Assembly: GCF_030013595.1 (NCBI RefSeq)
Contig: NZ_CP122768.1
DNA: 64,000 bases
Reading direction: 5' to 3' (one strand)
Origin: Escherichia coli
GTDB lineage: Bacteria > Pseudomonadota > Gammaproteobacteria > Enterobacterales > Enterobacteriaceae
Shown here: positions 7,633 to 27,487 of the stretch, in pieces
How positions within the stretch are numbered: the first letter of the stretch is position 1
Layout: each line of letters begins with the position of its first letter
Notes under the pieces: generated by a model
Told to the model about the DNA's origin: nothing
Seen by the model: the letters and a program-made list of their open reading frames with translations, nothing else
The model's database searches: none
Made by a program: the position numbers and the translations under genes

Positions 7633-8199
7633 ATGGCAAGTCAGGCTGAGGTCGCAGCACATTTACTGCTATCTGATCGTCGTCTGCGCGATCTTGCAAA
7701 ACTTCCGGGAGCTCCAGTCCCCCAAGGACGTGGCGATTGGGAACTTGACGCATGGCGCCATTTTTATATTCGTTATCTCCGGAGCAATAGACGCGACACA
7801 ACTAGTAATGACGAACCGGAAGCGGGGGACAATTCTCCCGAAAAAAATCGCGAGCAGTGGTTGAAAAATGAGGAACGGCAGGAGCGAATCCTGATGGCTC
7901 GCGTGAAACGCCGCATTCTTGCTAAACGCTACGCGCCAATTGAATTAATCAGCGTAGCTGTATCTCGCGTCGCAGTTGAATTACGTACCCGTGTCGAATC
8001 GTGGCCACCACGGTTAAAAAAGGTGTGGCCGGAAATGCCGCAGGAGGCGAGCAGTGTATTACGAGAGGAGCTGGCAATAGCCCTGAATGAACTGGCAGAC
8101 ATACGAATCGACTTCAGCGATTACGATGTCAGCGATATCGAACGCGATCTCGACAGGGTTGAATCCCTTGCGCGTGACGATACCGATGACGGGGGTTGA
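7633..8199 (+). CDS. Terminase small subunit (Nu1-like DNA packaging protein)
   Basis: N-terminal HTH-like segment comparable to lambda Nu1; immediately upstream of, and overlapping, the gpA-like gene. Confidence 0.6.
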   Translation: MASQAEVAAHLLLSDRRLRDLAKLPGAPVPQGRGDWELDAWRHFYIRYLRSNRRDTTSNDEPEAGDNSPEKNREQWLKNEERQERILMARVKRRILAKRYAPIELISVAVSRVAVELRTRVESWPPRLKKVWPEMPQEASSVLREELAIALNELADIRIDFSDYDVSDIERDLDRVESLARDDTDDGG

Positions 8200-10048
8200 G
8201 TGGGCTGATAAACATTTTTATCTTCCCGAAGGCTCAAGCCATATTGCTGGCCACTGGACGACTCAGCCGGTCCAGGTAGTGATGTTAAATATGATGACGA
8301 ACGACGCGATAAAAATCGTGTCTGTTCGCAAATCAGCTCGTCTCGGTTATACAAAAATACTCGTCGCGGCGCTGCTCTATTTCGCTGAGCACAAAAAACG
8401 TAGTGCCGTGGTCTATCAGCCTATCGATGACGAATCGGATGGATTTGTCGCCGACGAGGTTGACCCCGCTATCGCCGAAATGCCGGTGATTCAGAAAATT
8501 TTCCCCGACTGGGATAAAAGCAACGAGCGTAACAATCTCCAGCGTAAAGAGATGAACGGGGCGATTATCGATTTTCGTGGCGCGAGTGCACCAGGAAATT
8601 TCCGGCGACTGACGAAACAGGTTGTCGAGGGTGACGAAGTCGACGGCTGGCCGCTGGAGGTTGCAAAAAAAGGCAAGGGCGAGGGCTCGCCCATCGAGCT
8701 GGCGCTCGTTCGAATTAAAGGTGCAGCGTACCCAAAAGCAATTTTCGGTTCGACGCCGACCGTTACCGGCAAAAGCCATATAGAAATGTTGGAAGACGCG
8801 GCTGATCTGACGTTTCGTTTTTACCTGAAGTGTCCGCATTGTGGCGAGGAGCAGGTCCTGGTATTTGGTTTCGACGGTATCGAATACGGTCTCAAGTGGG
8901 ATGACAGCCTGCAGACCAACGAGTCGAAATCGTCGTCCGCGTATTACCAGTGCTGCCACTGCCCGGAGCATTTTTACTATCGCGATCTCGAAAAAATGGA
9001 GCTCGCGGGGCGCTGGATAGCAGAGGACTGCACCTAGACGCGGGACGGCATTCATTTTTTTGATCACGACGGTGGTGTCGTTCGCGCGCCGAAACACGCG
9101 GCGATCGTGATAAACGCCCTGTATTCACTGAATCTCGACGGCTGGGGCGAGATTGTCAGCGAGTGGCTGAAAGCGAAAGGCGACCCACTCAAAGAAAAAA
9201 CGTTTCATAACACGACGCTCGGCGAGCTCTGGAGCGACGTGGCCAGCGAGCAGCTGGAGCACGATATTCTCGTTAATCGCCGGGAAAAATACGCCAGCCA
9301 GGTTCCTGACGGTGTTGTTTATATAACCGGCGGCATCGACTCTCAGACGTCCGGGCGCTACGAGTGTTACGTGTGGGGCTGGGGATCTGAGGAGGAGTGT
9401 TGGCTGATTGATAAAACAATCGTCCTCGGTCGCTACGACGAGGAGGACACGCTGCAGCGCGTCGACGGAGTGATTCGTAAACAATACCAGCGCAGCGACG
9501 GGACCACAATCGGCGTCAGTCGTTGGGCGTGGGATACCGGTGGTATAGACGCGCAGGTCGTTTATAACCGCTCGCTCAAACTCGGTCCGCTGTGGGTCAT
9601 TCCGATCAAAGGCGCGAGCTCATACGGCCAGCCGGTCGTAAATATGCCGCGTACCCGTAACGCGAATAAAGTTTATTTATCGTTAATCGGTACTGATACG
9701 GCAAAAGATTTGCTCGCGATGCGTCTGCCGCTGGAACCCGACCCTAAATCGGCGACACCGGGCGCAATTCATTTTCCCAACGACGATGAAATATTCGGCA
9801 CGACAGAGGCAAAACAGCTCGTCTCCGAAGTTCTGATCCCAAAACTCATTAACGGTCGCGTCGTTTATCGCTGGGACAATCAGGGCCGGCGAAATGAAGC
9901 GCTCGACTGCTGGGTGTACGGACTGGCGGCGCTGCGTATCAGTAAAATTCGTTTTCAGCTCAATCTCGAGACGCTCGCTGAGCAACGGAAAAAATCACAA
10001 AACAAACTGTCTCTCGAGGAGATGGCCAGAATGCTCGGAGGGAGCTAA
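8186..10048 (+). pseudogene. Terminase large subunit (lambda gpA-like) interrupted by an in-frame TAG at 9035..9037; ORF-track fragments 8087..9037 and 9107..10048 are in the same frame
   Basis: Both fragments align to lambda gpA from memory (VEWAD..., CPHCGEEQ, TRDGI, GIDSQ, WGWG, IPIKGAS, RNEALDC); translation continues in frame across the stop with no frameshift. Confidence 0.75.
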
Positions 10049-10281
10049 TGACGTCGCGCGAGGTTTTAACAGAACGACTGCTGGAAGCGGAAATCGCTCT
10101 GCACAAATTATTAACGGGTAAATCGACCGTGTCGCTGTCTCACGGCGATTCAGCAGGAAATAACCGGAGCTATCAATACTCGCAGGCGAGTATTGAGCAG
10201 CTCCGAACGTACATTATCGAGCTGAAATCACAGCTCGGTCTGAGTACGGGACGCCGTCGGCCCGTGGGAGTTCGATTATGA
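10048..10281 (+). CDS. Head-tail joining protein (lambda gpW-like)
   Basis: Clear similarity to lambda W (LHKLLTGK, YIIELKSQ). Confidence 0.7.
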   Translation: MTSREVLTERLLEAEIALHKLLTGKSTVSLSHGDSAGNNRSYQYSQASIEQLRTYIIELKSQLGLSTGRRRPVGVRL

Positions 10282-25490: not shown

Positions 25491-26534
25491 ATGAGTGATT
25501 ACGTAAATACTGGCGTGGAAGCATGGAAGCCCAATTTTTATATATCTGCTGATAATGAAAACATCACGGATAAAATAAGAAAAGGTTTGATCAATATCAC
25601 GCTCACAGATTATGGTGGTTCGAGTAAACAGACAGACGAATTACGCGTAGCAATCGTTTCTGAAACTCTGAAAATTCCGGCCCGCGGAGTAAAAATCAGT
25701 ATTGGGCTCGGTTTCGGTAATCAGATAATTGATAAGGGTGTATACATCGTTGATGGTGCGAGCAGTGGCGGTGAACCCCGGGTAGTTGATTTCACAGCAA
25801 AAGCAGCGCCGATGAACGCATCAAAAGGCTCTCCGACAGTTCAGAGCAAAAAAACTCGCTCCTGGAGCGACGTCACTGTCAGCAATATCGTTGCAACAAT
25901 AGCGAGCGATAACGGGCTAAAACCACGCGTATCAAAGCGGTTTGCAGACAATATTATCACGCAACTCGATCAAGTCGGCGAGTCAGATATGCACCTGATG
26001 TCGAGACTAGCAACACGATTCGATGCGGTGAGTAAACCCGCGGGAGGGTACTGGATATTCCTGCCGCGCGGCGCGGGCGAATCTGTTAGCGGAGCGCCGC
26101 TTCAGCACTACACGCTCACGCGTCGTGATAACTCCAGCTGGGGTTATTCACGAAACGGACAAAGTGGCGATAGTGGTAGCGGTGGCGAAAATCCGGAACC
26201 GACGTATCTGATTAAATATCACGACACAGCAACTGGGCAGATCAAAGAATTGCGGACAGGTAGTGGCGGCGATCCTGTCATTGAATGGCCGACAGTTGAG
26301 CCGTCGCTCGACGCAGCGAAAGAAGCTGCACCAGGGCTCAAGGGCGGTGCAGCTAAAAAAGAGTTCTCTATGACGTACACGACGCCAGCGACGCTCGATT
26401 TAGTGTCGCTGACAGCAGAATGCAAAGTCACAACTCAAGGATTCGGGACCGAGGAGGACCGGGACTGGACTATCAACACGCTGAGCCTGACGCTTGCTGA
26501 AAACGGCTTTTCGGTTCGACTGTCACTGGAGTAA
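25491..26534 (+). CDS. Tail protein D (P2 gpD-like)
   Basis: Size and position as the last tail gene of a P2-type cluster. Confidence 0.65.
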   Translation: MSDYVNTGVEAWKPNFYISADNENITDKIRKGLINITLTDYGGSSKQTDELRVAIVSETLKIPARGVKISIGLGFGNQIIDKGVYIVDGASSGGEPRVVDFTAKAAPMNASKGSPTVQSKKTRSWSDVTVSNIVATIASDNGLKPRVSKRFADNIITQLDQVGESDMHLMSRLATRFDAVSKPAGGYWIFLPRGAGESVSGAPLQHYTLTRRDNSSWGYSRNGQSGDSGSGGENPEPTYLIKYHDTATGQIKELRTGSGGDPVIEWPTVEPSLDAAKEAAPGLKGGAAKKEFSMTYTTPATLDLVSLTAECKVTTQGFGTEEDRDWTINTLSLTLAENGFSVRLSLE

Positions 26535-26539
26535 ATGAA

Positions 26540-27487
26540 ATGGCAGTAATATCGGGTGTATACGCAAACGGGATCGGTGGGCCAGTTGTCGGCGTTCAGT
26601 TAGTATTAACAGCGCGGGTCACGAGTTCAGGCGTAGTAATGACCACCGTTGTAGAGCAAAAAACAGGCGCGGCGGGTGAGTACAAATTTGATATGAAGCC
26701 CGGCGTTTATGTCGTCACTGGTTGTGGCGCGTATCTGGGCGTGATTAATGTTAATCCGGACAGCCCAGACGGTACGCTAAACAACTATTTAACTAATTTT
26801 AGCGCAGACGAAATGACGCCGGCGGCGCTGACCGAGATCCAGGAACTGGTTAACGAGGCGAAGGCCGCGGCGGCTACTGCTCAGGATGCTGCTGCGCAGG
26901 CGATAACCGCAGTAGAAAAAATCGGCACGCCTGCGCCGTACATCCCGCCAGCGTGGGACGCCCCGGGGAGCACAATTTTTGGATATCTTTATATTGATAA
27001 AGGCACGTCATATCTACGGCCGGGGGAGATTGTTTCCGCGTCGTCAATTTACGTTGGCAACGTGACAATGATCGATAAGGGGAGCGGCCCGATGATCGGC
27101 ATGAGTCACACGCAGCAGCCCAGCGGTGGGAGTTGGCGTTTGCAAGGCAGCACAACACCAAATACAGACGCGAGTGTTAAATCAATGCGCAGCGCATTGA
27201 TTTTTCTCAGAATTGATAGCGACAGCCTGTTAACGCCCTCTCTGTTAAAAAGCGGTCGCGGCTCTGCGCGGGTGCGTAATTGCCGTTACGTAAACGCAGA
27301 GGGGACCTCGATTGATTGCGAGATTTTCACAGCAAACAGATGGATTCCGTTTACAGCGGCCGCTGATGACGTAACTGATTGGGGACGAAAAATTTTCAGC
27401 GACGCCCTAGCCGGTTTGTACGGTGTGATTGGCGTATTCGGCGCCCCCCTTTTTCCAGCTAATTGCAGTGAATCACCAGTAGTCTAG
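26540..27487 (+). CDS. Hypothetical protein (315 aa) following gpD; possible fibre-like/receptor-recognition protein or cargo
   Basis: ORF 5 nt after the gpD stop; Gly/Val-rich N-terminal segment then Ala-rich helical stretch; no confident family. Confidence 0.4.
   Translation: MAVISGVYANGIGGPVVGVQLVLTARVTSSGVVMTTVVEQKTGAAGEYKFDMKPGVYVVTGCGAYLGVINVNPDSPDGTLNNYLTNFSADEMTPAALTEIQELVNEAKAAAATAQDAAAQAITAVEKIGTPAPYIPPAWDAPGSTIFGYLYIDKGTSYLRPGEIVSASSIYVGNVTMIDKGSGPMIGMSHTQQPSGGSWRLQGSTTPNTDASVKSMRSALIFLRIDSDSLLTPSLLKSGRGSARVRNCRYVNAEGTSIDCEIFTANRWIPFTAAADDVTDWGRKIFSDALAGLYGVIGVFGAPLFPANCSESPVV

Follow-up and report, generated by a model that had tools for sequence, protein, structure and literature searches.

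A probable old mosaic of lambda-family head genes and P2/R-pyocin-family tail genes in an Escherichia coli prophage adjoining yecA

The 64,000-nucleotide stretch of Escherichia coli contig NZ_CP122768.1 analyzed here (assembly GCF_030013595.1; hereafter the window) carries at positions 7633-27487 a block of virion genes, an uninterrupted plus-strand run of co-oriented genes extending from the small terminase gene terS to an extra fiber-like gene. We propose, with a probability of about 0.85, that this block combines a lambda-family head with a P2/R-pyocin-family contractile tail in a single complete virion-assembly module, belonging to a temperate lambdoid-regulated myovirus prophage that adjoins yecA. 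According to this proposal, the block is an old mosaic inherited as a unit, and the copy carried by the window is probably packaging-defective.

Head and tail gene sets

The head genes stand in the order terS, gpA-type terL, W, portal B, S49 protease C, D, E, FI, and FII, and are followed by two neck genes. The tail genes then run V, W, J, I, H, sheath, tube, E/E', tape measure, U, X, and D, ahead of the extra fiber-like gene. Head and tail families were assigned from Pfam matches against curated cutoffs, PHROG profiles, PDB matches, and tblastn comparison with lambda and P2; every head-side Pfam match exceeded its cutoff. The genes listed in a first-pass annotation of the window were all found on the plus strand, in the order and at the coordinates it had given; its range reached 27487 because the extra gene (26540-27487) beyond D (end 26534) was counted in. 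Across the 64-kb window, tblastn gave no match to the lambda tail proteins Z, U, V, G, H, M, L, K, I, J, Stf, and Tfa, nor to the P2 proteins Q, P, O, N, M, L, R, S, G, and Ogr. With neither lambda tail nor P2 head proteins matched, the window therefore contains a single head set and a single tail set. The tail had been predicted to be contractile, and it is: sheath, tube, and baseplate genes were found, and the lambda tail genes were unmatched.

On the head side, the terminase small subunit gene terS (7633-8199, 188 amino acids [aa]) was assigned through phrog_57 (E-value 2e-39, residues 1-186); it had no Pfam match, and its weak local match to lambda Nu1 was not significant in pairwise comparison. 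The large subunit gene terL (8186-10048), of gpA type and a probable pseudogene, matches GpA_ATPase (4.5e-48) and GpA_nuclease (6e-64) on two same-frame open reading frames (ORFs), with 38% aa identity to lambda A in the N-terminal part and 50% in the C-terminal part. The gpW head-completion gene (10048-10281; Pfam gpW, 6e-16; 35% identity to lambda W) precedes a portal of the lambda B family (10278-11852; Phage_portal_2, 8e-91; 64% identity to lambda B) and a head protease/scaffold of the S49-type lambda C family (11852-13159; Peptidase_S49, 7e-39; 55% identity to lambda C). The decoration protein D (13159-13488) matches HDPD above the cutoff (1e-7) and is 41% identical to lambda D, while the major capsid protein E (13548-14582; Phage_cap_E, 2e-58) is 57% identical to lambda E, its nearest capsids outside this prophage lineage being of lambda/N15 type at ~57-58% identity. 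The packaging chaperone FI (14617-15030; Packaging_FI, 3e-10; phrog_92, 9e-31) can be aligned with lambda FI in its N-terminal 100 aa only, at 35% identity. Finally, the head-tail joining protein FII (15027-15407) matches Phage_attach above the cutoff (6e-9) and the head closure family phrog_82 (1e-22), and its pairwise comparison with lambda FII was not significant.

Altogether, the head proteins are 35 to 64% identical to those of lambda, versus 21 to 30% for the heads of Hafnia phage yong2, Citrobacter phage Chris1, and Vibrio phage VHML. Nucleotide similarity to lambda amounts to ~64-65%, chiefly in the portal and E genes, plus two short terL segments. The head had been described as following lambda in order and sequence; order and families bear this out, but likeness in sequence was overstated, given aa identities of 35-64% and the lack of pairwise significance for FII and terS. 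Strong plus-strand terminator-like hairpins, each with a T run after it, lie at 13509-13528 in the D-E gap and at 14581-14598 just past E. These hairpins, which flank the capsid gene, may act as partial terminators or mRNA stabilizers tuning the level of capsid protein.

On the tail side, the baseplate spike/assembly protein V (16617-17534, or from 16722 if the start annotated in relatives is the right one) matches Phage_base_V (3e-12) and TIGR01644 phage_P2_V (3e-24) and is 35% identical to P2 V. It is followed by the gp25-like baseplate wedge protein W (17537-17878, start from the relative's annotation; GPW_gp25, 1e-15; 37% identity to P2 W), by the baseplate protein J (17875-18795; Baseplate_J, 2e-20; 40% identity to P2 J; pyocin R2 PA0618, 8e-57), and by the baseplate/tail protein I (18798-19424; Tail_P2_I, 5e-37; 34% identity to P2 I). 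The tail fiber H (19417-20595) has a P2-like N terminus (Phage_tail_fib, 1e-31, residues 4-143) and an exchangeable C-terminal tip. The tip region (19829-20599) matches strain GF131 and is unalignable with the allele of sequence type 131 (ST131), in which an extra 129-aa ORF, probably a fiber chaperone, stands between H and the sheath gene; the window allele is without it.

The 499-aa sheath (20608-22107) matches Phage_sheath_1 and Phage_sheath_1C, is 36% identical to P2 FI over residues 157-494, and aligns with pyocin PA0622 over residues 153-491 (6e-49). Relative to the P2 FI, pyocin, and VHML sheaths, it has an insertion of ~115 aa after residue 40 that is common to yong2 and Chris1, and only these two and similar phages match it over its full length (46%). 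The tail tube gene (22125-22637; Phage_tube, 8e-22) precedes the tail assembly chaperone gene E (22650-22931; Phage_TAC_7, 2e-15), with a putative -1 frame extension, E', that brings the whole to 22650-23062. Free of stop codons between 22892 and 23062, the -1 frame overlaps the end of E, an arrangement consistent with the conserved E/E' chaperone frameshift; the predicted E' has no similarity to the P2 E' peptide. A conserved GGTAAAG at 22898-22904 is a candidate slip site; a C5 run was also considered as the slippery site and dropped, as it is not conserved in relatives. The tape measure protein (23040-24680, 546 aa) is assigned from its position between E/E' and U; it matches phrog_3654, of unknown function (3e-250), and is 34% identical to the gene at the same position in yong2 and Chris1.

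Tail protein U (24677-25105; Phage_P2_GpU, 3e-31) is 36% identical to P2 U, and tail protein X (25263-25487, start possibly at 25275; Phage_tail_X, 7e-16) is 40% identical to P2 X. The baseplate hub protein D (25491-26534) was assigned by phrog_52 (1e-92), 26% identity to P2 D, and the pyocin R2 chain 6u5h_C (2e-22), its match to Pfam Phage_GPD being weak (2e-4, below the cutoff). The extra fiber-like accessory gene (26540-27487) matches phage_tail_N, the lambda-Stf-type Prophage tail fibre N-terminal domain (3e-22). It is found in the window and in the closest relative of the prophage and is absent from the two other relatives looked at, and a poly-C length difference at 27444 alters its C terminus between the window and the closest relative. 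Overall, the tail shows aa identities of 33-53% with yong2 and Chris1, 23-52% with VHML, and 26-40% with P2. The earlier claim that the tail follows P2 order holds for V-W-J-I-H, the sheath, the tube, E, U, and D; it fails for X, which stands between U and D here but after L in P2.

Neck, seam, and proposed assembly

Two neck genes lie between FII and V. The first, orf226 (15438-16118, 226 aa), encodes a gpZ-family tail-completion (Neck1) protein according to phrog_27 ("tail completion or Neck1"; 8e-42), a family in which lambda gpZ is placed too (3e-69); Pfam Minor_tail_Z was matched by 3 of the 27 members of the orf226 family. The second, orf178 (16115-16651, 178 aa), belongs to phrog_1072 and encodes a homolog of R2-pyocin PA0615. 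Its family profile, built from 39 relatives recovered by exhaustive search, matched PDB entry 6u5f ("Collar PA0615") over the full length with an E-value of 7.6e-31. The AlphaFold model of orf178 (predicted local distance difference test score of 89) had as its best Foldseek matches the pyocin R2 collar, the Mu terminator, lambda gpU, and T4 gp15. Moreover, phrog_1072 also takes in VHML ORF29 and the yong2 counterpart, and hhalign of orf178 with VHML ORF29 gave a probability of 97.9%. By profile and by predicted structure, orf178 is a tail terminator (collar). Homology of orf226 and orf178 to P2 R and S was considered as well and ruled out, hhalign of both family profiles with R and S being not significant. 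The neck series is made up of a lambda-family FII, a gpZ-family protein, a pyocin-type terminator, and V; the same series occurs in yong2, Chris1, and VHML, and the orf226 and orf178 homologs of yong2 and Chris1 show 28-33% identity.

The seam between the halves is marked by base composition. G+C content at third codon positions (GC3) is 0.49-0.66 from terL through FII (terS, 0.47; FII, 0.59) and 0.36-0.53 from orf226 through D. Length-weighted GC3 is 0.604 in the head versus 0.439 in the tail, and total GC is 54.6% versus 46.7% (Mann-Whitney P = 0.0007). The GC3 step sits between FII (end 15407) and orf226 (start 15438), across a gap of 30 nt, orf226 being the first low-GC3 gene. Relatedness agrees with this seam, in that yong2 and Chris1 resemble the neck and tail genes while their terL and portal proteins are only 21-28% identical to those of the window, far below the values for lambda. 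By family membership, the lambda-type series could run on through the gpZ-like gene; either way, the seam falls inside 15.0-16.6 kb.

The first-pass annotation had placed a clear recombination junction at around 15.0-16.6 kb, and the GC3 step indeed lies within that interval, but no junction is visible at the nucleotide level. The nucleotide similarity plots against lambda and P2 that it had proposed found too little similarity to map any junction, P2 sharing a single 45-nt match with the window. The block is nevertheless a true evolutionary mosaic, because head and tail differ in nearest relatives and in base composition. These incongruent nearest relatives and the GC3 step argue for at least one module exchange in the history of the block.

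The difference in base composition could also be expected if two unrelated prophage remnants, a decayed lambdoid head and a decayed P2-like tail or tailocin, had come to lie next to each other and formed no single virion module. The broken terL of this copy, also broken by an insertion sequence (IS) in the closest relative, could be taken in the same sense. However, the genes are contiguous and co-oriented, with junction gaps of no more than 30 nt and no integrase, attachment (att) site, or regulatory gene between the halves. There is one head set and one tail set with a matching neck (FII, Z-like protein, and terminator), the order FII, Z-like, terminator, V is also that of yong2 and Chris1, and terL is intact in most of the sampled copies. 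Hence, we consider a chance neighborhood of two remnants highly improbable and retain a single module.

We propose a model of late expression and assembly for this module. The Q antiterminator gene (~4021-4692) and the lysis cassette lie upstream of the block on the same strand. There is no ogr homolog, and promoter-like sites inside the block are no commoner than chance; therefore, the P2-type tail genes are probably the distal part of one lambdoid late transcript, and the whole block would be expressed as one Q-antiterminated transcript. The terS/gpA terminase would package DNA through the lambda-family portal into a shell of E and decoration protein D, matured by the S49 protease/scaffold C; FI would aid packaging, and W and FII would complete the head. 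In the tail, a V-W-J-I baseplate would bear the H fibers around a D-X-U hub, while the E/E' chaperones, with E' presumably made by frameshifting, and the tape measure would direct polymerization of the tube and sheath. Heads and tails would assemble apart and join through a putative contact between FII and the terminator. In this hybrid neck, the gpZ-family completion protein and the PA0615-type terminator would cap the tail and form the face on which the diverged FII docks. That FII has diverged so strongly from its lambda counterpart is in keeping with adaptation to another terminator.

Distribution, age, and the terL lesion

The block was found in 453 of 5,426 complete E. coli genomes; in 441, the match covered 80% or more of it, nearly always at 90-95% identity. 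It lies beside yecA-tyrP in all three relatives looked at (L001, the closest, L002, and L003). In a 500-bp sliding comparison with two relatives, identity was even, at ~93-98%, across 15.0-16.6 kb; breaks relative to relatives occur elsewhere, at the fiber tip (19.8-20.6 kb) and at the accessory gene past D. A sensitive search of E. coli with portal plus C gave a bimodal distribution, with 445 records at 90% identity or more, 3,481 at ~65%, and none between 80 and 90%. Therefore, the head has no recent donor among sequenced E. coli prophages. Judged from these comparisons, the join is old, its layout also being found in VHML-type phages, and it is not a recent lambda-by-P2 cross.

E. coli genomes commonly hold both lambda-like and P2-like phage types. 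This would supply the parents for a recent recombinant of resident prophages with a sharp junction mappable at the nucleotide level, and the sharp GC3 step at 15407/15438 is what such an event might leave. Yet the nucleotide similarity to lambda of ~64-65% is confined chiefly to portal and E, P2 offers one 45-nt match, the portal-plus-C gap at 80-90% identity leaves no E. coli parent for the head, divergence is even across the junction among E. coli copies, and the tail is nearer to yong2 and Chris1 than to P2. A recent origin is thus very hard to credit, and the old join remains our preferred reading.

In the copy carried by the window, the reading frame of terL is broken at 9035-9037 by an amber codon (TAG in place of the TGG of the closest relative). 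The protein would be cut after 283 aa, ahead of the nuclease domain; therefore, this prophage is probably unable to package DNA, although its tail genes look intact. The closest relative, in pig strain NZ_CM149870 (L001), is 99.9% identical across 39 kb and bears an independent terL lesion, an insertion of the IS10-like element ISVsa5 at L001 positions 13103-14426, ~300 bp upstream of the amber position. In L002 and L003, a pair made up of GF131 and an ST131 strain, terL is an intact ORF of 620-624 aa, and it is annotated as intact in ~34 of 40 copies taken as a spread sample from 442. The lineage as a whole is not packaging-defective.

Independent terL lesions in two 99.9% identical copies, together with a tail cassette that corresponds to PA0615-PA0628, could point to a prophage under domestication into a tailocin (R-type bacteriocin), with packaging lost and the pyocin-like tail kept. 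Nevertheless, the head module of this copy is otherwise intact, ~34 of the 40 sampled copies have terL annotated as intact, and neither the head genes nor Q and the lysis genes of lambdoid type have been lost. We hold domestication to be very unlikely and read the element as a phage lineage of which some copies have probably lost packaging. A more speculative extension of this reading, for which we would give rather low odds, is that the lineage forms an uncharacterized genus-level group of Q-regulated lambdoid myoviruses, present at yecA in ~8% of complete E. coli genomes, ST131 among them. The neck would then be a natural adaptor between a lambda-type head and an R-pyocin-type tail, and the recurrent terL lesions would possibly be first steps toward an E. 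coli tailocin.

Several points weigh against the reading of the block as one old, complete module with a defective terL in this copy. The E. coli lineage is known here from genes alone, the four GenBank "phage" records being PHASTER-predicted prophage segments, one of them with the host gene yecA. The gpZ-like fold of orf226 was unconfirmed by structure search, and direct profile comparison with gpZ gave no clear result; the tape measure is assigned by position only, with nothing useful in Pfam, NCBIfam, or PDB; and E' has no canonical slippery heptamer. The amber codon is possibly a sequencing error, though its flanks are otherwise 99.9% identical to the relative. Moreover, the direction and timing of the module exchange are not deducible from the few genomes compared.

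Around the block, a variable region (6110-7264) between the lysis genes and terS is not common to L002 or L003; it holds a minus-strand 156-aa ORF (6562-7032). A remnant at ~7086-7227 is a frameshifted, incomplete small terminase according to the annotation of a relative. At the other end, the last prophage gene before yecA (27733-28152) encodes a 139-aa predicted lipoprotein (phrog_890), kept in all relatives looked at; the gene might serve lysogenic conversion or superinfection exclusion. In the stretch from the prophage end to yecA, the annotation of the closest relative gives a 105-nt "tRNA-OTHER" at ~28330-28434; ARAGORN found no tRNA across the 64-kb window, nor did Rfam across 27400-28700, and this feature may be an att-site fragment or an annotation artifact.

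Comparison with known systems

Modular head/tail mosaics are textbook phage biology, and this layout was already recorded with VHML and phage WO, so that the finding is in itself of little weight. Its interest lies rather in three consequences. For phrog_1072, whose function PHROGs v4 gives as unknown, the annotation can be updated to a tail terminator/collar family with homology to pyocin R2 PA0615. The lineage occurs widely among E. coli of clinical importance (ST131), while phage databases hold only PHASTER-cut segments of it, and our literature search for a lambda-like head with a P2-like tail, or for an ST131/yecA prophage, found no description of this prophage lineage. Finally, the neck of FII, gpZ-like protein, and terminator is a compact natural example of an interface between a lambda-type head and a contractile tail, and could be of use in engineering chimeric phages or tailocins.

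Lambda shares with the window the order and the Pfam/PHROG families from gpA to FII and onward into the gpZ family, with 50-64% identity in the terL C-terminal part, B, C, and E, and has in common with it a Q antiterminator and a lysis cassette upstream. Unlike lambda, the window has a contractile tail and no homologs of lambda U, V, G, T, H, M, L, K, I, and J, and its terS, FI, and FII are strongly diverged. P2 (Peduoviridae), with its operons V-W-J-I-H-G and FI-FII-E-T-U-D, shares the families and relative order of V, W, J, I, the H N terminus, sheath, tube, E, U, and D, as well as an X homolog. In contrast to P2, the window is without the head genes Q, P, O, N, M, and L and without R/S, G, and ogr; its tail genes are contiguous, with no internal late promoters, its sheath is longer (499 versus 396 aa), and its tape measure is shorter (546 versus 815 aa).

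For the tail, the closest named phages are yong2 and Chris1, two unclassified temperate enterobacterial myoviruses (sheath, 46-47% identity; J, 47%; D, 41-43%), in which V is likewise preceded by genes of the FII family, the gpZ family, and the phrog_1072 terminator family. They differ by a head made of a ClpP-capsid fusion and a cement protein, with terL and portal proteins 21-28% identical to those of the window, and by a permuted tail order in which V, then sheath to D, precede W, J, I, and H. Shigella phage SfV, which the first-pass annotation had offered as an example, proved unsuitable and was set aside as a comparison: its head is of HK97 type and its tail of Mu type, none of 26 window proteins matched it by tblastn at an E-value of 1e-3 or below, and the likeness goes no further than both being lambdoid temperate phages in broad concept, with tails that contract.

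The R2 pyocin of Pseudomonas aeruginosa offers the closest solved structures for the terminator, J, sheath, and hub, and it too has the terminator directly upstream of the baseplate genes. The R-pyocin structural cassette spans PA0615-PA0628 (PMC11871291) and corresponds to the window series from the terminator to D, a collinearity read from locus-tag numbers and not from PAO1 DNA. Pyocin is DNA-free and lacks head, terminase, and neck-joining genes, whereas the window has a full head module directly upstream of the tail.

VHML comes closest in layout. Its gene order is identical (terS, terL, [W], portal, S49 protease, decoration, E-type capsid, neck, phrog_1072 terminator, V, W, J, I, H, sheath, tube, E, T, U, X, and D), and homology extends over both halves at 23-52% identity, with homologous terminators; its sheath is without the ~115-aa insertion. 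The annotations of the VHML record name Wolbachia phage WO for head and baseplate genes alike, and the order U-X-D is common to the window, VHML, WO, yong2, and Chris1. The VHML-type phages (VHML, VP882, and phiHAP-1; Vhmlvirus/HAP1-like temperate myoviruses) are linear-plasmid prophages with ParA and a protelomerase (PMC2771037). The window element, inspected only for the part of the prophage inside the window, is unlike them chromosomal, beside yecA in the window and in three relatives, and under lambdoid Q control. Lavigne et al. (2009) noted that the P2 homology of VHML, VP882, and HAP-1 is largely confined to the V and F tail operons (PMC2771037).

These likenesses raise the question whether there is any mosaic at all, since an E-type capsid with a P2-type tail could be ancestral to VHML, WO, HAP-1, and the window lineage and vertically inherited, lambda having swapped its own tail. 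The shared order, the low and comparable identity to VHML in both halves, the homology of the VHML terminator to orf178, and the reference of the VHML record to WO for head and baseplate genes would all suit such a descent. However, the window head is far closer to lambda (50-64% in the terL C-terminal part, B, C, and E) than to VHML (24-30%), the tail has its nearest relatives in yong2 and Chris1, whose capsid type differs, and the head/tail incongruence and the GC3 step require at least one module exchange. An unbroken vertical descent is therefore unlikely, and an old mosaic inherited as a unit is the reading that we favor. In its architecture, this prophage is an ordinary member of an already known kind of temperate myovirus.

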